From: Nitrososphaerota archaeon
GTDB taxonomy: Archaea > Thermoproteota > Nitrososphaeria > Nitrososphaerales > UBA57
DNA length: 32,000 bases
Assembly: GCA_016871995.1 (NCBI GenBank)
Contig: VHBL01000006.1
Coordinates: 1-32,000, forward strand
Direction of reading: 5' to 3'
Shown: piece after piece, positions 625 through 15,647 of the stretch
Layout of the letters: every line of letters starts with the position of its first letter
How positions within the stretch are numbered: position 1 is the stretch's first letter
Translations under genes and position numbers: made by a program
Notes under the pieces: generated by a model
What the model saw: the letters and a program-made list of their open reading frames with translations, nothing else
Told to the model about the DNA's origin: nothing
Database searches by the model: none

Positions 625-1536
625 ATGATTGCGATTATCGGTTCAGGTAGAGTTGGCACATCAATTGCCTTGCAATTGATTAGCAGAGAACTCGATGACA
701 TTACGCTGATCGATATAGTTAAGGGCTTGCCTCAAGGGGAAGCACTTGACCTCGGTCACACGGCTTCAGAAATGGGCTCAGATGTCAGTATACATGGGTC
801 GAACGATTACGCAGACATTAAGGGAGCCAATATCGTGATCGTTACGGCAGGGCTGGCAAGAAAGCCCGGCATGTCAAGGTTAGACCTTGCAATGAAGAAT
901 GCTGAAATCATAAAGCCAATTTCGCTGGAGATAAAGCGTTATGCACCAGATTCAAAGGTCATCATAGTAACAAACCCGCTTGATGTGGTGACTTACGTTG
1001 CATTCAAGATAACGGGCTTTCCAAAGAACAGAGTCTTTGGTATGGGAGGGATGCTAGACCTCTCCAGACTGAAATATGCTCTAGCAACGAGATTGGGGAT
1101 GTCAAGGGCCTCTATTCGGGCCCTAGTCATTGGAGAGCATGGAGAGAACATGGTGCCTCTGGCTAGGTATTCCTCAGTTGGAGGAATACCAATAACATCT
1201 CTATTATCAAAAAATGATCTAGATGAAGCTGCAGAAGATGCAAGGAAGGTAGCTGCAGAAGTCATTGCGCTGAAGGGAGCTACAAACTTCGCACCTGCCA
1301 ACGGCGTAGCTGGGATGGTCGAATCCATTGCAAGGGATAGGAAGACGCTTGTTGCCGCTAGCACTTACCTTGAAGGAGAGTATGGAGTTAATGGTATCTG
1401 TATAGGTGTGCCGGTGATACTTGGAAGCAACGGCGTCGAAAAGATAGTTCAGATCGAACTTGACGCAGACGAGAAGAACAGGTTCATGGAAGGCGTGAAA
1501 GTCCTCAAAGAAGCAGTCGCCAGCATCACACTCTAG
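625..1536 (+). CDS. mdh: Malate dehydrogenase (LDH-like MDH family)
   Basis: 303 aa. N-terminal Rossmann motif IIGSGRVGTS, VTNPLD, and a catalytic-loop GEHG motif. Confidence 0.9.
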   Translation: MIAIIGSGRVGTSIALQLISRELDDITLIDIVKGLPQGEALDLGHTASEMGSDVSIHGSNDYADIKGANIVIVTAGLARKPGMSRLDLAMKNAEIIKPISLEIKRYAPDSKVIIVTNPLDVVTYVAFKITGFPKNRVFGMGGMLDLSRLKYALATRLGMSRASIRALVIGEHGENMVPLARYSSVGGIPITSLLSKNDLDEAAEDARKVAAEVIALKGATNFAPANGVAGMVESIARDRKTLVAASTYLEGEYGVNGICIGVPVILGSNGVEKIVQIELDADEKNRFMEGVKVLKEAVASITL

Positions 1537-2569
1537 CTGTAGCAGAATTTCCTTTAATTCTCTTGACTTCTTCTGTAATTAGAGGCAGAACCTTAAACAA
1601 ATCACCGACAATACCAAAGTTGCAGAACTTGAAGATTGGTGCGTTTGGATCGTTGTTTATTGCAACTATGAACTCCGAATTCTCCATCCCTACTCTATGT
1701 TGAACCGATCCTGAAATCCCTATCGCAAAATAGAGCTTTGGAGACACGGTCTTCCCACTCTGTCCTACCTGCCTATCTCTAGCCAGCCAGCCTCTTTCAA
1801 CTACGGGCCTAGAAGCACCTGACGAGGCTCCGATGGTCTTCACAAATTCCTCGAATATCTGCATATTCTCTCTGCTCCCGAAACCCATCCCTGCAGATGC
1901 AACTATTGGAGACTTTACAAGATCGTCTGAGCCTTCAACCCTAGCCTTCTCAACATTCAAAATTTTCGTACGTATGTCATCAGGTTTGAGTTCCACCTTG
2001 ACCTTCTGCACCTTTGTTTTTGAACTTCTGGGCTCGAGCTTTTTGAACGCACCCGGCCTTACAGTGACCATCTGTGGCCTTGTCTTTGTCAGTATTTCGG
2101 AGAGGTCTTTGCCGCCGAAATCTGGTCTTATTTGAATCAGCTGTTTACTTTCATTCACTTTCAGGTCCGTGCAGTCAGCAGCAAGGCCTGTCTTCAGCCT
2201 AGCAGCCATCTTAGAAGCTAAATCTCTGCAGTTCGGAGTCGCGGGGAAGAGAACTACGGACGGTTTGTAATCCAAGACTATCTTAGCTAGAACCTTGGTG
2301 TATGCATCTGAAGTATAATGCCCAAGAAGATCATGCTCTGCCACTATGACCTTCTCCGCCCCATATGCTGTCAGAATCTTCCCGAACTCAGATACATCAC
2401 TCCCTAGCATTACCGCCGTGATATCCTCCTGCAACAATTCCTTCAATCGGTAGGCAGCAGCCAAAAGTTCGAGGCTTGCATCTCTAGGCTTTCCACCCTT
2501 TGTTTCAGCATATACGAAGATGCCTTTCCAGTCATCGATCTTTGAAGCTGCAGGTGCTTGAGCCATCAT
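1526..2569 (-). CDS. etfA: Electron transfer flavoprotein alpha subunit (EtfA/FixB)
   Basis: 347 aa. C-terminal FAD-binding region LYFAIGISGSVQHRVGM...VAINNDPNAPIF. 4-nt start/stop overlap with etfB. Confidence 0.9.
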   Translation of the reverse strand: MMAQAPAASKIDDWKGIFVYAETKGGKPRDASLELLAAAYRLKELLQEDITAVMLGSDVSEFGKILTAYGAEKVIVAEHDLLGHYTSDAYTKVLAKIVLDYKPSVVLFPATPNCRDLASKMAARLKTGLAADCTDLKVNESKQLIQIRPDFGGKDLSEILTKTRPQMVTVRPGAFKKLEPRSSKTKVQKVKVELKPDDIRTKILNVEKARVEGSDDLVKSPIVASAGMGFGSRENMQIFEEFVKTIGASSGASRPVVERGWLARDRQVGQSGKTVSPKLYFAIGISGSVQHRVGMENSEFIVAINNDPNAPIFKFCNFGIVGDLFKVLPLITEEVKRIKGNSATARV

Positions 2570-3372
2570 TCAGAACCCTTGATTAGTTGCTTTTCAATTA
2601 GGATATTCATCAGTTCGCTTACAGATTCTTTCGAATCCCCTGATTTTATCATCCCGCCGGGCTTTGGCGGAGGGGGATACACCTTAGAAACCCACGTAGG
2701 AGAACCCTTCAGCCCGTAAAGGCTCAGGTCCCCTCCAAGCTCTGCAGCGTTCACGACGCGAATCTCCTTCTTCTTCGTCTTGATAACTTCTCGGAGGGTG
2801 GGGAGCCTCGGCTTGTTCAGACCCTCCATGACTCCTAGCAGAATAGGGGTTGGAGCTTCAACAGTTTCGATCTGGCTTTCGACCTCTCTTTTTACTATGA
2901 CTTTCTTCTGATCTGGAAAGACTTCCACGCTTTTGGCATATGCCACGTGTGGAATGTCGAGCTGCTCCGCAACTTGTATCCCAGTCTGCCCAGTTTCTGC
3001 ATCTATAGCCCTCCTCCCGCAGATTATAAGATCGAAATCTTTTCGAAACGTTTTGATCGCCTTTGCAAGAGTGTAAGCGGTGGCAAGAGTGTCAGCGGCT
3101 GCAAATGTTCTGTCGCTGAGAAGAATCGCATCATCAGCACCCATTGATAGGCATTCGAATAGAGCTGCTTTTGCCTGAGGGGGACCCATGCTCAAAATCG
3201 TGATTCTTCCTCCATGTTTCTCCCTGATTCGGAGAGACTCTTCAACGCCTATTCTGTCATCAGGGTTTACGATACTGGGCACTCCCTCCCTGATCACGTT
3301 GTGTGTGATCGGGTCAATTCTGAGCTCTGCAACATCTGGAACCTGCTTGACACAGACTACTATGCTGACCAA
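2566..3372 (-). CDS. etfB: Electron transfer flavoprotein beta subunit (EtfB/FixA)
   Basis: 268 aa. N-terminus IVVCVKQVPD...NPDD is typical of EtfB. Confidence 0.9.
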   Translation of the reverse strand: MVSIVVCVKQVPDVAELRIDPITHNVIREGVPSIVNPDDRIGVEESLRIREKHGGRITILSMGPPQAKAALFECLSMGADDAILLSDRTFAAADTLATAYTLAKAIKTFRKDFDLIICGRRAIDAETGQTGIQVAEQLDIPHVAYAKSVEVFPDQKKVIVKREVESQIETVEAPTPILLGVMEGLNKPRLPTLREVIKTKKKEIRVVNAAELGGDLSLYGLKGSPTWVSKVYPPPPKPGGMIKSGDSKESVSELMNILIEKQLIKGSE

Positions 3373-3378
3373 AAATGA

Positions 3379-3648
3379 TCACCCGAACCTAAAATTCACG
3401 CCCTTCCCTGCTGGTGGCGATGTAACCCTGATCTTGTCGAAGGGGCAGACAACCTCGCAGGCCCCGCATTCTAAGCACCCTTCATATGATATGATCAACT
3501 TCCCTTTATCCCAGTTGTAGTCATCTACGGGGCATACGAAGGTGCAGGGCTTAAGGCTGCATTCAGTACACTTGCTCGTATCTACGATTAGATGGTTCTC
3601 TTCATGCACGTTGAACCGGTCTAGAAACAGTCTCTCTTCCAGCTTCAC
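3379..3648 (-). CDS. fixX: FixX-type ferredoxin-like protein
   Basis: 89 aa with Cys clusters (CTECSLKPCTFVCP, CLECGACEVVCP). Lies between fixC and etfB and overlaps the fixC stop by 4 nt. Confidence 0.85.
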   Translation of the reverse strand: MKLEERLFLDRFNVHEENHLIVDTSKCTECSLKPCTFVCPVDDYNWDKGKLIISYEGCLECGACEVVCPFDKIRVTSPPAGKGVNFRFG

Positions 3649-4943
3649 GGTGCCATCCCTCTTACAGAATAGGCATCACGAATAGCCCTCAATACTCCAA
3701 CCTTCTGCCTAAATTTCTTTATCGCTCTTTTATGTTTTAGACTCTTCGGCTCGCTGTCTATATGTAGCATGTCTGCCAAAAGCTCTCCAACAAGGTCAGG
3801 GTAGACTCCAAATAGCCTTTGATTCTGGATTAACTGCTTGTGAGAGCTTGATTTTCTCTTCATCTCCTTCATCACATAACTCTCGTCAAGCATCTTCTGG
3901 TATATTGAAAGTGATTTTGCAGAAAAATCGTTGCTTTTCTTCGCATGTAAAGCTACCTTGCCAACCATCATTCCAGAGGCCATTGCGAGGTTAGTTCCCT
4001 CTGGATAAGAGCACAGATATGCTGCGTCACCAGCTATCATTACGCCATTACCATACATTCTTGGCAATCTGCTGTACCCAGCTTCAGGTATAAGGTGAGC
4101 AGAATATTCCTTGGCCTTGCCCCCAGCAATCAGAGGCTCGATCATAGAATGCGATTTGAATTCATCCAGGAGCTGGTAGGGTTTCATCTGCAGCTCCATA
4201 AGATGTGAAAGCAGGATTACTACTCCAACGCTCAGACTGTTAGAGTTTGTATAGACAAAGCCGCCGCCCATCTTACCATGCGTGCACCCTATAGTCTCCA
4301 TTCTGGCACCTTCGCCTTTTCTGAGATTGAACCTTGCCTCGATAGTTTCAGCTGGTAATTCGATGACTTCTTTTACGCCTATGGCGACCTCGTCTGGATT
4401 TGGAGCGCTTCTCAAGTTTGCTTTTACTGCTACGCTTGAGTTTACGCCATCGGCCCCTATGACCACATCTGCATAGAGCTCGTTTTCTGCACCCTGCCCT
4501 GCCCTTATGCCTACAACTTTACCATTTTCTTCTATGACATCGTCAACGGCAATTGAAGTTGCCAGCATGACTCCAGCTTCTTCTGCCCTTGATGCGTACC
4601 ATCGGTCAAACTTTGCCCTGATTGCTGTATAGCCGTTGTAAGGAGCCTTGCCCTTTCCATCTACCTTGAAGCTCATCAGGAGACCAGAGTCTTTCGACAT
4701 GACCATGAATCGCTGATCTACTATCTGCCTTTCTAGGGGAGCAGTCTCCCAGAACTTTGGAACTATCTCTTCCAGAGGCCATCGATAAAGAACACCGCCG
4801 AAGACGTTCTTTGCCCCGGGGTATTCACCCCTCTCCAGCAGGGCTACTCTCATTCCTTCTTTGGCCATTGTGAGGGCTGCGGTTGTCCCAGCAGGGCCAG
4901 CACCAACTACTATGGCATCGAACTTTTCTCCGTCAGCGTGCAT
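3645..4943 (-). CDS. fixC: FixC-type FAD-dependent ETF-quinone oxidoreductase-like protein
   Basis: 432 aa. FAD-binding motif DAIVVGAGPAGTTAA...LLERG and GDAA motif (IAGDAAYL). First gene of the fixC-fixX-etfB-etfA operon. Confidence 0.85.
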   Translation of the reverse strand: MHADGEKFDAIVVGAGPAGTTAALTMAKEGMRVALLERGEYPGAKNVFGGVLYRWPLEEIVPKFWETAPLERQIVDQRFMVMSKDSGLLMSFKVDGKGKAPYNGYTAIRAKFDRWYASRAEEAGVMLATSIAVDDVIEENGKVVGIRAGQGAENELYADVVIGADGVNSSVAVKANLRSAPNPDEVAIGVKEVIELPAETIEARFNLRKGEGARMETIGCTHGKMGGGFVYTNSNSLSVGVVILLSHLMELQMKPYQLLDEFKSHSMIEPLIAGGKAKEYSAHLIPEAGYSRLPRMYGNGVMIAGDAAYLCSYPEGTNLAMASGMMVGKVALHAKKSNDFSAKSLSIYQKMLDESYVMKEMKRKSSSHKQLIQNQRLFGVYPDLVGELLADMLHIDSEPKSLKHKRAIKKFRQKVGVLRAIRDAYSVRGMAP

Positions 4944-5053: not shown

Positions 5054-7084
5054 TTGAAACTAAAGAGCTTCCGCGTCATGAACTACAGGAGCATCGAAGA
5101 CTCTGGAGATGTCCCAGTCAGTGATTATACCGCACTGGTAGGCAAGAACGAGAGCGGAAAGACTTCGTGTCTAAAGGCTATCCATAAGTTCAATCCCACT
5201 CAACCAGAACCTTTTGATGGATTGCGGGAGTTCCCTCGCAACCGTTTTCACGAATTTACGGGCACTGAGCCAGTAGTTTCATTGACCTTTGCCTTATCTG
5301 ATGAGGAGGTTAACAAGCTCGCAGCCATAAACCAGAGGTTCAAGGATTCCAATATTATCAGAATTACCAGAGATTACACAGGCGGCTACAGGTTCGAGTT
5401 TCCTGAAATCGATAACCCTCCGCATATAACGAAAGAGATCGTTGTTAACCTGATAGGCCAGATCAAGGATACTGGCTCAAACAGCTTAGGCGGGACTGCC
5501 GAAGGGAGACCGCTGCAAGAACAGCTTGTGGAAGTTCTGAACAAGATTATCGCTGGGCTGAGCGATACCTTCGATGCGAGGTCGCCTGAACAAAAGAAGA
5601 AGCTCTTGGAGCAGTTGCAGGACGTCCGTTCAATGATAGCATACTCCAACGCTGCTGTCGATACGACGCTAGTAGTAGATGTCATTGAGCAAGTTATACA
5701 AATCATAAATGGAGACACTCTGCCAGAGGTTCAGGCATATCTCAGGCAGGCGATGCCCAAGTTTATCTACTTCGACAATTATTCGATAATAAACAGCAGG
5801 ATTCACATACCATTTTACCTGCAGAGGCTGAAAGCTGGTGCCCTGACACCTGAAGATAAAACAACCAGAACGTTGTTCAGGCTTGTCAATCTTGATCCAG
5901 AGATTCTAATGAGACTCGGAAATGCGGAGGGGAAGAGCCCTGAACGACTGCAGAAGGATATTGACGAAAGAACGGTCAGGATGAGTAGGGCTAGCATGGT
6001 CATGAGCGGGGACCTTGCTGAAATCTGGGGGCAGAAGAGAAACAGGGTCGAATTCAGGCTGGACGGTGATTTTATCAGGCTCTGGATCGCGGATGCGGAA
6101 GGTTCTACCATCGAGCTTGAACAGAGAGGGAAAGGTTTCCAATGGTTTCTTTCGTTCTACGCAGTATTCAACGGAGAGTCCGAAGCAGGCCACAAAAACG
6201 CCATTCTGTTGCTCGATGAACCCGGTATGAACCTGCATGCTTCGAGTCAGGCCGCCTTGGTAAAGTTCCTTAGAAGGCTTTGCAAGAAGAACCAGTTGAT
6301 CTATACTACGCATTCGCCATTCATGATAGATATGGATGCGCTTGACACTGTAAGGACAGTTTCGGAGAGCAGAGGTACAGGAGCAACGATTTCTGCAGAT
6401 GCTTGGAGCAAGGACAAAGACTCTTTATTCCCGCTGCAGGCAGCGTTGTATTACTCTGTTTCCCAGCCGCTACTTGCCGCCCAGAACAACCTTATCGTGC
6501 AGGACATCACCGACTTCTGGTACGTGGCAGGCTTCTCTGATATGTTCAAGCAGCACAATCTGGCTCATCTCAGCGACAAAGTTGTCATAACGCCTGCAGG
6601 AGGGGCAAGCAACTGCGTCCTGCTCTCTGCCATGCTGTCGACTCAGAACCAGAACGTATGCGTGTTATTGAACTCTGATGCAGTTGGGGAGAAGGTCAAG
6701 GAGGATTTACTGAAGACCAAGATTTTGCAGCAGAACAAAATCATCTACGTAAACCAAGTTGGCGGGAAGAAAAGGGATATGGAGTTTGAAGATCTATTTC
6801 CAGAAGAATTCTACCTTAACTATGTCAATAGGGCCTATGCTAAAGAATTGGCAGACAGCCCCATGACTTCTCAAGTCCCCTTGCATGGTCCAACCATACG
6901 CAACAAGATCGAGCAGTACCTTACACTAAGAGGAGCGGAGTTTCACAGGAGCAGGCCAGCACGCATAATGTTAGAGGATTTACGTAGTATGAAGGCGAGC
7001 GATCTTCCAGAGGAATTTGTCAAGACTATGGAAAACCTGTTTACCATGATAAACGAAGCTCTGCTTCCGCCGCAGGGCGATTAA
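5054..7084 (+). CDS. OLD-family-like protein: N-terminal ABC/AAA15-type ATPase with a long helical insert, C-terminal Toprim-like domain
   Basis: 676 aa with a TTG start; the N-terminus MKLKSFRVMNYRSI matches the family. Walker A GKNESGKT (aa 30-37), signature-like RGKGFQWFLSF (358-368), Walker B ILLLDEP (384-390), H-loop TTHSPF. Toprim-like LIVQDITD (480-487), ITPAGGASN (512-520), VLLNSDAVGE (537-546). Confidence 0.7.
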   Translation: MKLKSFRVMNYRSIEDSGDVPVSDYTALVGKNESGKTSCLKAIHKFNPTQPEPFDGLREFPRNRFHEFTGTEPVVSLTFALSDEEVNKLAAINQRFKDSNIIRITRDYTGGYRFEFPEIDNPPHITKEIVVNLIGQIKDTGSNSLGGTAEGRPLQEQLVEVLNKIIAGLSDTFDARSPEQKKKLLEQLQDVRSMIAYSNAAVDTTLVVDVIEQVIQIINGDTLPEVQAYLRQAMPKFIYFDNYSIINSRIHIPFYLQRLKAGALTPEDKTTRTLFRLVNLDPEILMRLGNAEGKSPERLQKDIDERTVRMSRASMVMSGDLAEIWGQKRNRVEFRLDGDFIRLWIADAEGSTIELEQRGKGFQWFLSFYAVFNGESEAGHKNAILLLDEPGMNLHASSQAALVKFLRRLCKKNQLIYTTHSPFMIDMDALDTVRTVSESRGTGATISADAWSKDKDSLFPLQAALYYSVSQPLLAAQNNLIVQDITDFWYVAGFSDMFKQHNLAHLSDKVVITPAGGASNCVLLSAMLSTQNQNVCVLLNSDAVGEKVKEDLLKTKILQQNKIIYVNQVGGKKRDMEFEDLFPEEFYLNYVNRAYAKELADSPMTSQVPLHGPTIRNKIEQYLTLRGAEFHRSRPARIMLEDLRSMKASDLPEEFVKTMENLFTMINEALLPPQGD

Positions 7085-8924: not shown

Positions 8925-10271
8925 TTATGTGCCATATTTCGCTATAAGGGGCATTGCCTTTCTGGCAACTTCCTCTGCATCCCTGCCTAACACTACTATC
9001 ATCGGCTCTTTTCCCCAGTCCCCTTCATGATAAATAATATCGGGAACCCTGCCAATTTTTCTAATCGCTTGCTCCGCACCCCAAGCAGTGCTCCTCCCTT
9101 CCTGTATCTTGATTTCTTTTGGTTCCTTCCTCCTGTCATAAGACGAAACTACAAACTTTGATTTTGCATTTTTAATCAAGGATTCATCGTACCTGATATT
9201 TATCGCAGAGCGCACTTCAGCATCATGCTTCATAGCAACCAAGACCATTTTAGCGACATGGGAAGAAGCCCCAAACGCAGGAAAAGAAGAAGCGCGAGCC
9301 TTATTCCCAATTCTAACAATCCTGCCGGGAATTGCTGCGACATCTTCGATGCCCTTTGCTTCAGGAAGGGCCATGGCAATATTAGACTGCGATTCAGGTA
9401 TTAGACCAGCAAACTTGCTATTTGCTTCAATGATGCTAACAGCCCTCTGGATGCTGGACAGCACCTGCACCTTTTGAGCGTCAAGATACAACTCTCCAGT
9501 AGGATTTACAGGGCCATGACCCTTTCCTATTTGTAATCCGAGTTCTATAGCCCTAGTGACAAACTTCTTTGCAATCCTAACCGATTCCTCAACATCTTTC
9601 CCTTTAGCTAAGTTAGCGGTTATAGCAGCAGAAAAGCAGCAGCCCGTCCCATGCGTATTTTTGCCCTTAACCCATTTCTCCTCAAGCCTCAAAGTCTTAG
9701 TCTTTGTCACAAGAGTGTCAATAGAGCTATTACCAACAGGCATGTGTCCTCCTTTTATGACTACTGCTTTTGCGCCCATCTTCAGTATTCTTTTCCCTGC
9801 CTTCTCAGCATCCTCAAGGGTTTTGATCTTTAGGCCAGAAAGAACCTCCGCTTCTGGAATATTGGGAGTTACAACAGCAGCAAGTGGGATTATCTTTGCG
9901 ATGAGAGCATCTCTGGCTTCTGGCAATAGTAAAACAGAGCCGCCTTTTGAAACCATTACAGGATCAACCACAAGAAGAAAACCGTACCTTCTTACTTCTG
10001 AAGATACCGCATCAATAATGGTGCTAGTATGTAGCATCCCCGTCTTTGCAGCATCAACCCCAATATCATCTGCAACTACCCTTATCTGCGCCCGAATCAC
10101 TTCGGGACTAGCGTCCATGACCTTGGTAACATCTCTCGTGTTCTGAGCAGTTATTGCTGTAATTGCGCTCATTCCGTGCACCCCAAAAGCAGCGAAAGTC
10201 TTCAAATCAGCCTGTATCCCAGCCCCCCCTCCAGAATCAGAGCCTGCAATAGTCAGTGCTCTTTTGACCAT
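8925..10271 (-). CDS. thiDN: Bifunctional ThiD-ThiN: HMP/HMP-P kinase fused to ThiN-type thiamine-phosphate synthase
   Basis: 448 aa. N-terminus [20 protein letters not shown] is ThiD-like. The C-terminal ~180 aa ([23 protein letters not shown]...AINIRYDE) is a ThiN domain, paralogous to the ThiR C-terminus in this window. Confidence 0.9.
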
Positions 10272-10279
10272 CTGACCAC

Positions 10280-10864
10280 CTATAACTCAATCACGATATC
10301 CATGCTCTTCTGAAGTTTATCCAGCAGCCTTCTCTCACGCCTTGAAATGCCCGTCCCCATGTCGTCTGCAGGAAACTTCCCTCTGTAACCATTTGCTACA
10401 AACGTAGAGCATTTTGAGATGACCTTCAAGAGCCTTGCCAGCTCCCCTCTGTGCAGAAAAAGCGTAACATCATTTATGAAAAGTATCTTTGAGCGCTTCT
10501 CCATGAATTCGGAGAATAAGGCCCCAATGTTCTTTGCGTTAGCCAATGCTAGCTTCTCCACCTGCTCCTTTGAACCCCCATCAAGTCTTGGCGCATAGAC
10601 ATTCTTCGGTGCCATGTACTGGACAAGGTCAAGGTTCTTCAGATAGTAACGCAGTGTCTTTCCCATAGTATAAGAGCCGACATCTCTTTTCCCCGGGGCC
10701 ATGTCAATGACAGTGATCTTAGCTCCCTGCTTCGAGTTTATGGCTTCATCAAGGAGTTTAGCCAGTAGAGCAGTCTTGCCAGAGCCTAGGTCTCCAGTTA
10801 TCAGGACTTTCTTGCCCAAGCAGTCAGCAAATCTATACTCCGAGCTTAATCCCTCTTTTTGCAA
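10280..10864 (-). CDS. Uncharacterised P-loop NTPase (SIMIBI/GPN-like layout without a GPN motif)
   Basis: 194 aa. Walker A GDLGSGKT (nt 10772..10795), ITVIDMAPG, Walker-B-like ILFINDVTLF. Overlaps the thiW 3' end by 32 nt, and its stop is 8 nt from the thiDN start. Confidence 0.7.
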   Translation of the reverse strand: MQKEGLSSEYRFADCLGKKVLITGDLGSGKTALLAKLLDEAINSKQGAKITVIDMAPGKRDVGSYTMGKTLRYYLKNLDLVQYMAPKNVYAPRLDGGSKEQVEKLALANAKNIGALFSEFMEKRSKILFINDVTLFLHRGELARLLKVISKCSTFVANGYRGKFPADDMGTGISRRERRLLDKLQKSMDIVIEL

Positions 10865-11357
10865 GGCCTGTTACCACCAAAAATCCAAGTATCGTGCCAG
10901 GAATGCTGCTGGCCCAGAAGCTCAGCAGGAATGCCATCCACTGTTCGCTGAAACCAAACACTGCTGGTAATGGTCGAGTCCCTGCAGCAGGTGCTACTAT
11001 GAATGCGCTGATCAATGCTCCGAGCCCCGTTCCAATTGGCTCCAGCAAGCCTACAAGGGGGCTCTTCTTCAAGTATTTGTATGCAATACCAACAAGCAGA
11101 ACTCCTGGCAACCCTCCAGGTATGGCAAATATCGAGCCCGTGCCCATGCCTATCCTTATCAAGCCTATCGTCAGCGCGACTCCTCCTCCCATCCATGGCC
11201 CCAACATTATCCCCGTTATGATATTGATCATGTGCTGGTAAGGTAAGACCCTTACTGGCCCTACTGGTATCGAGCCAGGGTAAATCGAGAGTGCTACACC
11301 TAAAGCTATCAATAAAGCTGCCAGTGCTATGTAGCGGGAAGTTATCATTTGGAGCAC
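10833..11357 (-). CDS. thiW: ThiW-like membrane protein (predicted thiazole-moiety transporter, ECF S-component-like)
   Basis: 174 aa, multi-TM. Pattern P.QH.IN...G..LGPW, IR.G.GTGS.FA.PGG and EPIGTG..GA matches my recollection of the ThiW family. The track start at 11357 is GTG; the ATG at 11348 is more likely. Confidence 0.65.
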   Translation of the reverse strand: MLQMITSRYIALAALLIALGVALSIYPGSIPVGPVRVLPYQHMINIITGIMLGPWMGGGVALTIGLIRIGMGTGSIFAIPGGLPGVLLVGIAYKYLKKSPLVGLLEPIGTGLGALISAFIVAPAAGTRPLPAVFGFSEQWMAFLLSFWASSIPGTILGFLVVTGLAKRGIKLGV

Positions 11358-11367
11358 AGGTTTTTGT

Positions 11368-11384
11368 AATGCTTATAAAGCATT
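11368..11384. promoter_or_regulatory. Inverted repeat AATGCTT-ATA-AAGCATT embedding a TATA-like core; candidate shared bidirectional promoter/operator for thiW and thiR
   Basis: Perfect 7-bp arms with a 3-bp spacer. The centre (11376) lies 27 nt from the thiR ATG (11403) and 28 nt from the thiW ATG (11348). Confidence 0.5.
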
Positions 11385-11402
11385 TAATAAGTCAGTTATA
11401 TC

Positions 11403-12347
11403 ATGCATCCTCCATGCGAGCTCATGACCGAAACCTTTCTTCCTGCTATGAGAGGACTCGTAGCACACGAACTGGCAAAGAAGGGCTTTTCGCAGTCCAA
11501 AATTTCAAAACTTTTAGGAGTTACACAGCCCGCAGTGAACCAGTATCTTGCAAAGCCCCAGGGTTTCTATTCCCAGAAGGTTTCAGTTCTGGGAATAGGC
11601 GAAGCAGAATCTGCAAGGTACGCATCCCTGCTTGGAGAGGATTTAGTGACAAATCAGGTCGCAGCCGTGCATACACTCTATACGGTTTGGAGGCAGCTTC
11701 TGCTGGAAGGGAAGCTCTCTGATCCAAGCAGAATTTTAGATGGACGGCCCCTGTGCGACATCTGGACACCTATGATGAATCCTGCTACGACGGGAGATGA
11801 GAGGGTAGCGATAATAGAAGAGGTAAAGAAAGCGGTAAGGATGATAGAGGGTTCAACTACCTTTCCCAGCATAATGCCCGAAGTCTCCGTGAACCTTGTA
11901 ATGTCTACCAGATCGCCGAAGGGCGAAGCCGATGTCGCTGCTATGCCAGGAAGGATAGTTAACGTAAAAGGCAGGGCCAGGGGCCTTCTGGCACCGGAAT
12001 TCGGGGTTTCGCATCATATGGCAAGAGTACTGCTTATTTTACATTCAAAGTTTCCCGCAATAATATCTGCGATGAACATACGCTATGATCAGTACGTTGC
12101 GAAGGTTCTGAAGCAAAACAAGATTGAATGCGTGATGACCGATCCCTCAGGCAGGGAGGGCTCAGATCCTGTATTGCATTCAATCCAGCAGCTCCTTCCT
12201 AAAATCAAGCAGCAACCTAAGGCAGTAATCGATGCAGGGGGGCAGGGAATAGAGCCGATAACATACATCTTCGGGGAAAGCGCATTGGATGTAGCCACGA
12301 GTGCGATAGCGATATCGCGACAGTATTCGACGCTGAGCACGAATTAA
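11403..12347 (+). CDS. thiR: ThiR-type regulator: N-terminal HTH fused to a ThiN-like ligand-binding domain
   Basis: 314 aa. HTH segment SQSKISKLLGVTQPAVNQYL. C-terminal AAMPGRIVNVKGRARG..FGVSHHMARVLL...AMNIRYDQ parallels the ThiN half of ThiDN. Confidence 0.8.
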   Translation: MHPPCELMTETFLPAMRGLVAHELAKKGFSQSKISKLLGVTQPAVNQYLAKPQGFYSQKVSVLGIGEAESARYASLLGEDLVTNQVAAVHTLYTVWRQLLLEGKLSDPSRILDGRPLCDIWTPMMNPATTGDERVAIIEEVKKAVRMIEGSTTFPSIMPEVSVNLVMSTRSPKGEADVAAMPGRIVNVKGRARGLLAPEFGVSHHMARVLLILHSKFPAIISAMNIRYDQYVAKVLKQNKIECVMTDPSGREGSDPVLHSIQQLLPKIKQQPKAVIDAGGQGIEPITYIFGESALDVATSAIAISRQYSTLSTN

Positions 12348-13493: not shown

Positions 13494-13733
13494 TTGGTTT
13501 ATACGTTACGCAACATTGTTTACGAGAAGATAAAGTCTGAAGGGCACATCACAGATATTGAACTGCTGGAAGCCTTGAAGAAGGCCGGAGTAGAGGCTAC
13601 CATGCGGGACATAAACAAGATCCTCCTGCATTTAGAAATCCTAAACCTAGTTTCCGTAAGGTGGGTAGGGAAGGACAAAAGAAGGATAGAGATAGCAACT
13701 AAAGAGGCCGAAAAACCCCACGCTATATGGTAG
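13494..13733 (+). CDS. Small winged-helix-like protein (hypothetical)
   Basis: 79 aa with a TTG start. Helix-helix-helix followed by a beta-hairpin-like VSVRWVGKDKRRIEI. Its stop abuts the stop of the convergent ABC ATPase. Confidence 0.45.
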   Translation: MVYTLRNIVYEKIKSEGHITDIELLEALKKAGVEATMRDINKILLHLEILNLVSVRWVGKDKRRIEIATKEAEKPHAIW

Positions 13734-14435
13734 TCAAGGAATCCTTTTCTTAACCTGCACGATTGTGTGAGCTATCTTGACTACTCTGTCATCATGAGTA
13801 GCGATGATGATGGTCTTCTTCTTCAAGGCATGGTCGCTCTTGACAAAAGCGACTACCATATCGGTCATGACAGGATCTAGTGCCTCCGTAGGCTCATCCA
13901 GAAGCATGATTGGAGGATCCAGCGCTATGCTCCTCGCAATGGCAATGATCTCCCTCTCGCCAACGCTCAGTGTCCCAACTATCCTGTTTCCCATTTTAGG
14001 AATTCCAATTCTCTGCAGAACTTCCTGAACCCTCCTTGCTCTGTCCCCTTTTGGAATATTCTGGAAAATTAATGGCAGTTCGATGTTCTGCGCAATAGTA
14101 AGCTCTGGAACAAGGTTCTGAGTCTGAGGAACTATCCCGAAGGTCTTGGCTCTGAAGACTGCCAACTCCTTCTCTGGCATTCGAACGATGTCGATGCCTT
14201 TTACGATGACCCTACCAGTATTTGGCTTCAAAAAACCTGCAACCATGTTCAATAGCGTAGTCTTCCCAGAACCTATCGGGCCCTTAAGGGCCACAAACTC
14301 TCCATCACGGAAGCCAATATTCACGCTTTCGAATATCCTGTGCGCCGAAACCTCTCCATAAGACTTGCTAACGCCCTCTAACCTAACAGCGTAGTTCACG
14401 GCCATCGCGGAGACCTTGAGTTTATTTTCCTGCAA
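13734..14435 (-). CDS. ABC transporter ATP-binding protein, FtsE/LolD/MacB-type
   Basis: 233 aa. Walker A GPIGSGKTT, Q-loop VPQ, variant signature LSVGE, Walker B IMLLDEPTEALD, H-loop ATHD. Confidence 0.9.
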   Translation of the reverse strand: MQENKLKVSAMAVNYAVRLEGVSKSYGEVSAHRIFESVNIGFRDGEFVALKGPIGSGKTTLLNMVAGFLKPNTGRVIVKGIDIVRMPEKELAVFRAKTFGIVPQTQNLVPELTIAQNIELPLIFQNIPKGDRARRVQEVLQRIGIPKMGNRIVGTLSVGEREIIAIARSIALDPPIMLLDEPTEALDPVMTDMVVAFVKSDHALKKKTIIIATHDDRVVKIAHTIVQVKKRIP

Positions 14436-14889
14436 GAGTCTCGCGTGTTCCGATATATGACCCTACCGTTGTTCCAGCAAGTGCTCCGAATACTAGCAGC
14501 GCATTTTCAAGTAAACCGGCTGTAAAGCCTGTCGTTTGCATGACAAACAGTGCACTTACCCCAAAGATGAACCCTGCAACAGAACCCAATAGACCGACCA
14601 TGACAACATTGACGAGTAATGTCTGCAGCAAAAGGGAATGGCTCGCACCAAGTTCTTTGAAGACTCTGATGTTCCTGTCAGATCTTTCTATCGACTGTCT
14701 TACAAGGTAATACTGAGAAAACCCAGCAAAGACGAATGCTAAAAATGGAACTGCAAACCTTGCTGGAGAGCTGATAGTTCCAACCAGAAGTGTAGAGTTT
14801 ACCATTATCATAGAAGAAATGATGAGTCCCAGTCTCAGCTGGGACCTTTCCATGTGGAGCCCCCTGATGACAATCTCCATTGGGAGCAT
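14422..14889 (-). CDS. Minimal FtsX-domain permease (4 TM, no extracytoplasmic domain)
   Basis: 155 aa. TM1 is followed almost immediately by the FtsX core (ERSDRNIRVFKELGAS....L..V.....LGS.AGF.FG). Overlaps the ATPase start by 14 nt. Confidence 0.7.
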   Translation of the reverse strand: MLPMEIVIRGLHMERSQLRLGLIISSMIMVNSTLLVGTISSPARFAVPFLAFVFAGFSQYYLVRQSIERSDRNIRVFKELGASHSLLLQTLLVNVVMVGLLGSVAGFIFGVSALFVMQTTGFTAGLLENALLVFGALAGTTVGSYIGTRETLAGK

Positions 14890-14908
14890 TTTTCCAACAC
14901 CAGCAGGG

Positions 14909-15544
14909 TTATACGGTTATTGTAGGAGCGATTTGATCCTGCTTTACTCCAGCATCGGAGCCTGTAAGCCAAGCAAGAATTCCTGAAATTTCTGCCTGCT
15001 CCTCTATATCGCTCTTCAGGATTCTGTTGACCGACTCCATGGCCGCTCTGTAAGCTTGCTCATCGATTTCGCCAGTCCTGTATTGAACCTTCAACCCAGC
15101 ACTGAACTTGCTGATCTGAGCGTTTCTGCGTTCTAGCATAGAGATCCTTTCCTTCAGTGCATCTGTTAGAGACGTGTACGTATTGCGGAGAGCTGTGATC
15201 TCAGAGTCATACACCATCTTCAGGTGTTCGTATGCTTCTGCAGATATTTCTCCTTCTTTGGAGAGGTTGTCCAAAACTGTTGCCCTTTTCTGGGCCAGAG
15301 TTGTATCCCTCTTTAGTCGTTCGACCTCCTCCTTCCAGTCTGGGAGGAGAACTACGTATTCGCCCTCGAAGAGAATGCGCTCGTTTGTGTATTCACCGAA
15401 GTCCCCTCCTGTATGCTCAACTGCCAAGGCCTTGATGTGCCCTGTGTTGTCCAGAGAGAAACCTATGACGTTTCCTATGTGCCTTCCGTAGCTATCCTTT
15501 ACTTGCTTCCGAACCAAGTTTACCAAGGTCTGAGAATGCATCAT
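14909..15544 (-). CDS. cdvA: CdvA-like cell-division protein (PRC-barrel plus coiled coil)
   Basis: 211 aa. N-terminus VKDSYGRHIGNVIGFSLDNTG is PRC-barrel-like, followed by LPDWKEEVERL...AQKR...EISAEAYEHLK...GEIDEQAYRAAME. This architecture is collinear with Sulfolobus CdvA as I recall it. Confidence 0.7.
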   Translation of the reverse strand: MMHSQTLVNLVRKQVKDSYGRHIGNVIGFSLDNTGHIKALAVEHTGGDFGEYTNERILFEGEYVVLLPDWKEEVERLKRDTTLAQKRATVLDNLSKEGEISAEAYEHLKMVYDSEITALRNTYTSLTDALKERISMLERRNAQISKFSAGLKVQYRTGEIDEQAYRAAMESVNRILKSDIEEQAEISGILAWLTGSDAGVKQDQIAPTITV

Positions 15545-15647
15545 TTTTTTGACCTATTCGCGAATTCAGCACAGATCGAACATAGCATATCATGTCAATT
15601 TGGTTGAGTAAGTAGGTTAAAAAATTCAACATGGCGTTAGGGCAAGG

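Follow-up and report, generated by a model that had tools for sequence, protein, structure and literature searches.

In bacteria, FtsEX is a type VII ATP-binding cassette (ABC) complex that acts at the division site with FtsA and FtsZ and activates EnvC, PcsB, or RipC. Canonical permeases of this superfamily (MacB, LolC/E, and FtsX) carry a large extracytoplasmic working domain between their first and second transmembrane helices (TM1 and TM2). Here, we describe a locus in which a related ABC pair is tied to a division scaffold of another kind. In a window of 32,000 nucleotides (positions 1 to 32,000 of contig VHBL01000006.1, from a Nitrososphaerota archaeon), the gene for CdvA, which belongs to ESCRT-type division systems, is followed by genes for a small FtsX-domain permease (mini-FtsX) and an ABC ATPase. 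Judged by sequence comparison, cdvA, mini-FtsX, and the ATPase gene form a conserved three-gene unit specific to Nitrososphaerota (Thaumarchaeota), archaea of the ammonia-oxidizer type, with a linkage that is exclusive and bidirectional. Of the factors that might tie CdvA to the membrane, the mini-FtsX/ATPase pair is at present the strongest candidate.

It is a standing question how CdvA, which comes first at division sites of the ESCRT type, gets to the membrane and stays there. Sulfolobus CdvA filaments did not bind membranes in vitro and showed no membrane-binding surface, and as yet unidentified tethering or activating partners were postulated for them (Drobnic et al. 2026, PMC12818579). 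In Crenarchaeota (Sulfolobus), cdvA is followed by cdvB and cdvC, whereas the cdvA of the window, also the first gene of a (here predicted) operon, is followed by the ABC pair; thaumarchaeal cdvA lies separate from cdvB/C (PMC8970359). The E3B peptide of Sulfolobus CdvA binds the winged-helix (wH) domain of CdvB and so couples the two proteins, whereas thaumarchaeal CdvB has no wH domain (PMC11188069). The CdvA of N. maritimus is reported to localize to mid-cell and to be needed for division (reviewed in PMC5840170). Haloarchaea provide a further point of comparison, as CdpA and the PRC-barrel protein CdpB are archaeal membrane or adaptor anchors of a division ring and PRC-barrel proteins are again involved (PMC10120694, PMC12126565), but they are unrelated proteins on an FtsZ/SepF system with no ABC ATPase.

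In our literature searches, no paper was found to connect CdvA with a system of the ABC or FtsX type, in agreement with the earlier note on this DNA, which had been aware of no such link. The literature covered included a 2024 ESCRT survey in which neighborhoods were anchored on Vps4, a PRC-barrel survey apart from its supplementary neighborhood tables, a 2018 review, and the 2026 structure paper. A search on the N. maritimus locus tags around Nmar_0700 likewise found nothing. In public databases, the three genes carry generic annotations (“CdvA-like protein” for the first, otherwise “hypothetical protein” or “ABC transporter ATP-binding protein”).

CdvA and the adjoining ABC pair

All three open reading frames (ORFs) lie head to tail on the minus strand of the window (Table 1). 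The first encodes a protein of 211 amino acids, which scored 75.3 bits against the Pfam CdvA model PF18822 (cutoff 30; residues 86-197) and aligned end to end with the NCBIfam model cell_div_CdvA, NF041007 (residues 3-198 to 3-197 of 235; 100.5 bits). The equivalog cutoff of the latter, a Sulfolobales-based model, is 350 and was missed, a shortfall to be expected because this is a thaumarchaeal ortholog at about 30% identity. The Pfam PRC model scored below threshold (15.5 bits vs. 21.2). An AlphaFold2 model computed with 21 homologs (predicted local distance difference test, pLDDT, 88) folds into a β-barrel at about residues 14-66 and three long helices at 69-194; residues 197-211 form a disordered tail. 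In Foldseek, it superposed on the S. islandicus CdvA crystal structures 9s9i/9s9g (E 6e-14; TM-score 0.80/0.87) with 29-30% identity over about 190 residues, and the next matches were PRC barrels at E values of 1e-4 to 1e-3 (MTH1859, reaction-centre H subunits, and A. fulgidus PRC domains).

On these profile and fold-model matches, the protein is a genuine full-length CdvA, orthologous to the crenarchaeal division scaffold. The earlier note had called it CdvA-like, and the hidden Markov model (HMM) check bears this out. The Pfam CdvA score and the Foldseek match to full-length CdvA rule out a generic PRC-barrel protein, a reading that we rejected because the coiled-coil domain as well as the whole fold match S. 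islandicus CdvA. The C-terminal E3B peptide is probably absent from the window CdvA, because thaumarchaeal CdvB lacks the wH domain that the peptide binds in Sulfolobus. In the marine clade, the tails of CdvA proteins are long and variable and consist of tandem repeats rich in Pro and Glu (PEPIVHAE or PEPTPE; L006 6001-7146, L032 548-1792, L028 4687-5739, and L001 3361-4233). Behind the repeats comes a conserved C-terminal module (…DFAN.HPDLSP.ED…NGWKISF), which is missing from the window CdvA. This marine module could be a lineage-specific partner-binding peptide.

The second gene encodes the permease. Its match to the Pfam FtsX model is marginal (25.6 bits vs. a cutoff of 25.5), and nine of nine aligned homologs also match. 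Four hydrophobic segments can be read from the sequence, with basic residues clustered at both termini and in the loop between TM2 and TM3. The predicted order is a basic cytoplasmic N-terminal helix, TM1, a loop of ~6 residues, TM2, a coupling helix, TM3, a short loop, and TM4. In an alignment of 21 members, TM1 holds an almost invariant Asn, TM3 a Gly-zipper, and the basic coupling helix an LGA motif whose G is invariant and whose A is nearly so. None of the 21 has an insertion between TM1 and TM2, and the family therefore has no extracytoplasmic domain. Searched against the PDB, the 21-member profile matched only type VII ABC permeases (LolF, LolE, MacB, LolC, YbbP, YtrF, and FtsX), with E values of 2.9e-7 for LolF, 2.6e-6 for LolE, 5.8e-5 for MacB (over TM2-TM4), and 0.39 for FtsX. 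A protein profile search of 1.84 billion representative proteins yielded 24 mini-permease matches at E 1e-3 or better, each of them 170 amino acids or shorter. By these profile matches, the permease is a stripped-down type VII (MacB/Lol/FtsX-superfamily) ABC subunit with four predicted transmembrane helices and no ectodomain, and it belongs to a small, discrete family of such ectodomain-less proteins.

The third gene encodes an ATPase that scored 105 bits against Pfam ABC_tran. Its best NCBIfam models were FtsE, L_ocin_972, and LolD, with DevA similar, and it missed all of their equivalog cutoffs, including that of the FtsE model TIGR02673 (153.8 bits vs. 264.85). The nearest solved chain was YtrE (140 bits), followed by MJ0796, BceA, FtsE, MacB, and LolD. 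In the family alignment, the Walker A motif, Q-loop, Walker B motif with its catalytic Glu, D-loop, and H-loop are invariant; the Walker B motif is followed by E (DEPTE), and the signature motif reads LSVGE (LSEGE in one lineage) where LSGGQ would be expected. Motifs and matches together identify it as a predicted nucleotide-binding domain (NBD) of the MacB/LolD/FtsE type that keeps its catalytic motifs and has a family-specific, non-canonical signature, LS[V/E]GE. Some eukaryotic ABC proteins have degenerate ATP sites with low turnover, whose signatures this one resembles; by analogy, and speculatively, LS[V/E]GE may point to a slow, switch-like ATP cycle.

The window ATPase ends in a basic KKRIP, in line with a family consensus of (K/R)(K/R)(K/R)IP-COOH, and this tail is a candidate docking motif. 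It occurs at positions 13734-13760 of the window and at the ATPase C-termini of L001, L002, L007, L009, L035, and L038, and is absent from other ABC NBDs.

Taken together, the pair resembles FtsEX in its composition (a four-TM permease with an FtsX domain plus a MacB/LolD/FtsE-type NBD), in its genetic tie to a division scaffold, and in the lack of an evident transported substrate. It differs in the TM1-TM2 loop (about 6 amino acids in the window permease vs. about 100 in FtsX), in a permease profile and an ATPase that both fall closer to other members of the superfamily, and in its genomic partner, which is the ESCRT-type CdvA instead of FtsA/FtsZ. Any output of the pair would have to be cytoplasmic or intramembrane. 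The earlier note had described the pair as FtsEX-like. This holds at the level of the superfamily and fails below it, as the permease has no ectodomain and a profile nearer to LolF, LolE, and MacB, and the ATPase misses the FtsE cutoff. By analogy, the cdvA-linked pair would be a functional counterpart of FtsEX in concept, not an ortholog.

MacB, LolCDE(F), YtrEF, and BceAB are the systems that both subunits match best, by profile as well as by sequence, and they share the LGA coupling-helix motif. The N-in/C-in topology of four helices per protomer, which the hydrophobic and basic segments of the cdvA-linked permease suggest, may be a further common trait. These systems, however, bear large periplasmic Porter/Sabre or equivalent domains and handle extracytoplasmic substrates, whereas mini-FtsX has no such domain, is only 150-170 amino acids long, and is confined to cdvA loci. 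As predicted from sequence, the triad thus contains a type VII superfamily member without the superfamily's working domain. Such a minimal complex could help to show what the conserved core of transmembrane and nucleotide-binding domains in MacB, Lol, and FtsEX systems can do alone.

Conservation of the three-gene unit

The linkage was assessed from each of the three genes. Starting from CdvA, every homolog with a fetchable contig (L001-L007, L009, and L035-L037; 38-93% identity to the window CdvA) was followed by a four-TM protein of 150-175 amino acids and an ABC ATPase. Altogether, 12 CdvA loci reached by look-up or scan, at 34-93% identity, bear the pair without exception. A scan of a genome collection with narrow CdvA peptide patterns found three close loci, and near-identical DNA was present in groundwater metagenome-assembled genomes (MAGs) labeled Thaumarchaeota or Nitrosopumilales.

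The ATPase provided a query independent of CdvA, a DNA pattern for GTLSVGE-(19 aa)-DEPTE that matched all known loci and was run on a metagenome collection. It returned 25 matches, 24 of them family loci at 246-377 bits. The L019 match was rejected as a family member, being a LivF-like ATPase (34% identity; GTLSVGEQQML) matched by chance on a 1-kb contig. A mini-permease lay directly upstream of the ATPase in all 21 loci whose contig reached that far, and CdvA was the next gene upstream of the permease in each of the 17 loci that could be assessed (9 by HMM and 8 by tblastn of CdvA C-terminal tails). A scan of viral contigs for the ATPase signature gave no match. Starting from the permease, all six divergent representatives sampled from the 24 adjoin cdvA and sit between cdvA and an ABC ATPase gene; the L042 contig stops before the ATPase, and L041 shows only a CdvA tail and an ATPase N-terminus. 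In the two CdvA-independent searches (ATPase pattern and permease profile), the ABC pair was never found away from cdvA.

The triad recurs in about 13 lineages from marine water, groundwater, and metagenomes without a habitat label in their records, at loci whose GC content spans 27-64% for intact triads. Beyond the clade to which the window belongs, CdvA is 34-63% identical to its window counterpart, the ATPase 40-69%, and the permease about 20-56%. Spacers range across loci from 18 to 98 nt between cdvA and the permease gene and from -41 to +16 nt between the permease and ATPase genes. Consecutive NCBI protein accessions in MAGs also fit the adjacency. Sequence conservation of this kind places the adjacency far beyond chance. 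The earlier note had proposed a check of synteny across Nitrososphaerota, and in every Nitrososphaerota-type lineage sampled the adjacency is kept, in both directions.

Upstream of cdvA, the lineages also share a bipartite element. In an alignment of 14 lineages (the window plus L001, L003, L005-L007, L009, L032, L035, L038-L040, L042, and L043), all 14 fit the consensus TTTT(G/A)AC, about 24 nt, (A)TT(C/G)AC, 7-8 nt, and a TATA-like box, with invariant columns T.TT.A and TT.AC about 24 nt apart. The element is kept whichever gene lies upstream of cdvA, across loci of 27-64% GC, and the short spacers that precede the permease and ATPase genes showed nothing like it. A loose regular expression for it matched 20 times in 300 kb, compared with 6.9 ± 2.8 times in shuffles (about 3-fold), and about half of the matches were at cdvA. 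From this conservation, the element is a candidate operon promoter with a transcription-factor site, and it may be a cell-cycle promoter.

A proposed role and its rivals

We put the probability at roughly 50% that the mini-FtsX/ATPase pair acts as an ATP-gated membrane receptor or anchor, or as a regulator, of CdvA assembly. This reading is favored because CdvA is the sole constant partner of the pair and because a tether for CdvA is the stated gap. In the mechanism that we propose, the three genes would be transcribed from the conserved promoter element upstream of cdvA, and a (mini-FtsX)2(ATPase)2 complex would serve CdvA, on the cytoplasmic side, as a membrane receptor gated by ATP. As the complex has no ectodomain and could not work outside the cell, its ATP cycle most likely acts at the membrane or on its cytoplasmic face. 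ATP would drive the NBD dimer to close and open, and these movements would be relayed through the coupling helices and the conserved N-terminal helices; the relayed cycle would bring CdvA polymers to the membrane, orient them there, or let them go; and CdvA placed in this way would license assembly of the ESCRT-III (CdvB) ring. A more specific and more tentative form of the proposal, to which we give somewhat less than even odds, is that the pair is, in Nitrososphaerota, both the membrane tether of CdvA and an ATP-dependent switch. It would then be the first of its kind, a type VII ABC system that turns its mechanical output onto a cytoskeletal scaffold at the cytoplasmic face and not to the cell exterior.

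If this more specific form is true, division of the ESCRT type and division of the FtsZ type would each, independently, have taken up the same ABC superfamily to regulate the divisome. The pair makes the membrane-tether question for CdvA directly testable, and experiments are feasible, since the host group includes cultivable, globally abundant nitrifiers (the loci described here come from MAGs and metagenomes).

Several points weigh against this reading. Co-transcription and a physical or functional interaction between CdvA and the ABC pair are predictions from gene order. The AlphaFold2 monomer model of the permease was poor (pLDDT 57; predicted TM-score 0.26) and was left out of the fold search; because of this low confidence, the fold of the permease is deduced from its profile matches and from its likely topology. 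There are few taxonomic labels (Thaumarchaeota, Nitrososphaerales, or Nitrosopumilales, as names of MAGs), and the CdvA sample consists of relatives reachable from the window query. In Crenarchaeota, moreover, cdvABC are adjacent and CdvA works without an ABC neighbor (PMC8970359), so the module is not a universal requirement of CdvA.

The pair could instead be a transporter or flippase for a lipid, a lipid-linked envelope precursor, or a small hydrophobic molecule needed for the remodeling of membrane and S-layer at division, timed together with cdvA and without binding CdvA. Operon linkage would account equally well for such co-timing, the solved ATPases nearest in sequence come from extractor or efflux-type type VII systems (YtrE, MJ0796, BceA, MacB, and LolD), the permease profile is best on LolF, LolE, and MacB, and the conserved polar Asn of TM1 could, with the Gly-zipper helices, line a lipid-facing groove. 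Characterized type VII systems, however, work through an extracytoplasmic domain, which is absent from 21 of 21 aligned members; no substrate-binding, adaptor, or envelope gene is consistently nearby in the examined loci; and an exclusive two-way linkage to one cytoplasmic scaffold would be unusual for a transporter. We regard this explanation as unlikely, although it is the strongest of the rivals. Slightly less probable still is a role after assembly, in which the pair would use ATP to take CdvA filaments apart or turn them over, or would serve as a checkpoint for their removal or remodeling at the membrane, and would not anchor them. The synteny evidence applies to this idea just as well, the intact catalytic Glu and H-loop imply by sequence that ATP is really turned over, and the filaments of S. 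islandicus CdvA are constitutive and very stable and would need a regulator (PMC12818579). Set against this, no unfoldase or segregase activity is known for a dimer of ABC NBDs, and Vps4/CdvC is the known disassembly ATPase of Cdv systems; nothing in the sequence separates turnover from anchoring.

Neutral synteny, in which a housekeeping or resistance-type ABC system sits beside cdvA through inherited gene order, like tatA and the heme O synthase gene, seems improbable to us. TatA and UbiA/heme O synthase are also often kept beside cdvA, so some neutral synteny does exist in the region, and the database annotation of the genes is generic. But TatA and UbiA are gone from the neighborhood in L007, L009, and L038-L043 while the triad is unbroken throughout, the pair was never met away from cdvA in the CdvA-independent searches, the spacers are tiny or overlapping, and the family is very small and confined to cdvA loci. 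We therefore continue to prefer the ATP-gated receptor or regulator of CdvA as the working explanation for the pair.

Layout of the locus and its surroundings

The coordinates of the features are collected in Table 1. The earlier note had reported three tightly packed same-strand genes with a 19-nt gap containing GGTG, as the sequence read bears out, and a 14-nt overlap between the permease and ATPase genes. The overlap holds if the ATPase starts at the TTG. From the ATG at 14405 it begins MAVNYAVRLEGV, which lines up with the N-termini of homologs and with where the gene starts in the sister clade L002/L005; by this comparison the ATG start, and with it a 16-nt gap, is at least as likely, and the genes are tightly packed either way.

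Table 1. Features of the cdvA locus and of neighboring parts of the window
Feature	Position	Strand	Remarks
Bipartite element	15579..15624	-	Upstream of cdvA; aligned across 14 lineages
Repeat 1, TTTTTTAACC	15624-15615	-	First half of bipartite element
Repeat 2, (AAA)TTGACA	15598-15593	-	Second half of bipartite element
A/T-rich TATA-like stretch, ATATGCTATGTT	15590-15579	-	After repeat 2
cdvA	15544..14909	-	211 aa
cdvA-permease spacer	14890..14908	-	19 nt; Shine-Dalgarno-like GGTG 8 nt before the permease ATG
Mini-FtsX permease	14889..14422	-	155 aa; predicted 4-TM; FtsX domain
ABC ATPase	13734..14435	-	Probable start ATG 14405, 223 aa; other start TTG 14435, 233 aa
Short stem + T-run	13704..13719	-	Directly after the ATPase stop, inside the 3' end of the convergent ORF; possible operon end
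Convergent ORF	13494-13733	+	79 aa; zero spacing to the ATPase stop codon
Thiamine cluster	8925-12347		ThiD-ThiN fusion, ThiW transporter component, second ThiN-domain protein
AAA_15/AAA_21 (OLD/ABC-like) ATPase	5054-7084	+	676 aa
Electron-transfer flavoprotein genes	1526-4943	-	Alpha and beta subunits, beside an FAD protein

The stem and T-run were read from the sequence and from a scan for sigma-70 promoters and terminators that uses bacterial consensus sequences, and such a scan says little for archaeal DNA. The divergent genes upstream of cdvA encode heme O synthase (UbiA family; 299 bits with NCBIfam, above cutoff) and TatA. The convergent ORF downstream showed a weak match of the Fur or winged helix-turn-helix type. 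As a fourth component of the unit it was rejected, since its conservation does not reach beyond the groundwater clade of the window (78-99% identity). Neither a Snf7/CdvB nor a Vps4/CdvC gene was found within the 32-kb window, and its remaining genes are housekeeping genes.

A protein of 81-82 amino acids with two transmembrane helices and a C-terminal CxxC…CPxC zinc ribbon is encoded 0.7-1.5 kb downstream of the triad in the marine and L007/L035 clades (L035 10696-10941, L007 3424-3669, L001 6836-7084, L006 9637-9885, and relatives). It was rejected as a core component, as it is absent from the window.

Three further observations concern more distant parts of the window. The OLD/ABC-like ATPase is related to OLD-family ATPases recently linked to cell-cycle progression in Saccharolobus (Cran1, PMC12796447), and its gene could equally be a defense gene. 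The genes for both electron-transfer flavoprotein (ETF) subunits adjoin one for a flavin adenine dinucleotide (FAD) protein resembling ETF-quinone oxidoreductase, and they may bear on whether the thaumarchaeal host lineage is a strict ammonia oxidizer. The thiamine cluster is also found beside the cdvA locus in L002.

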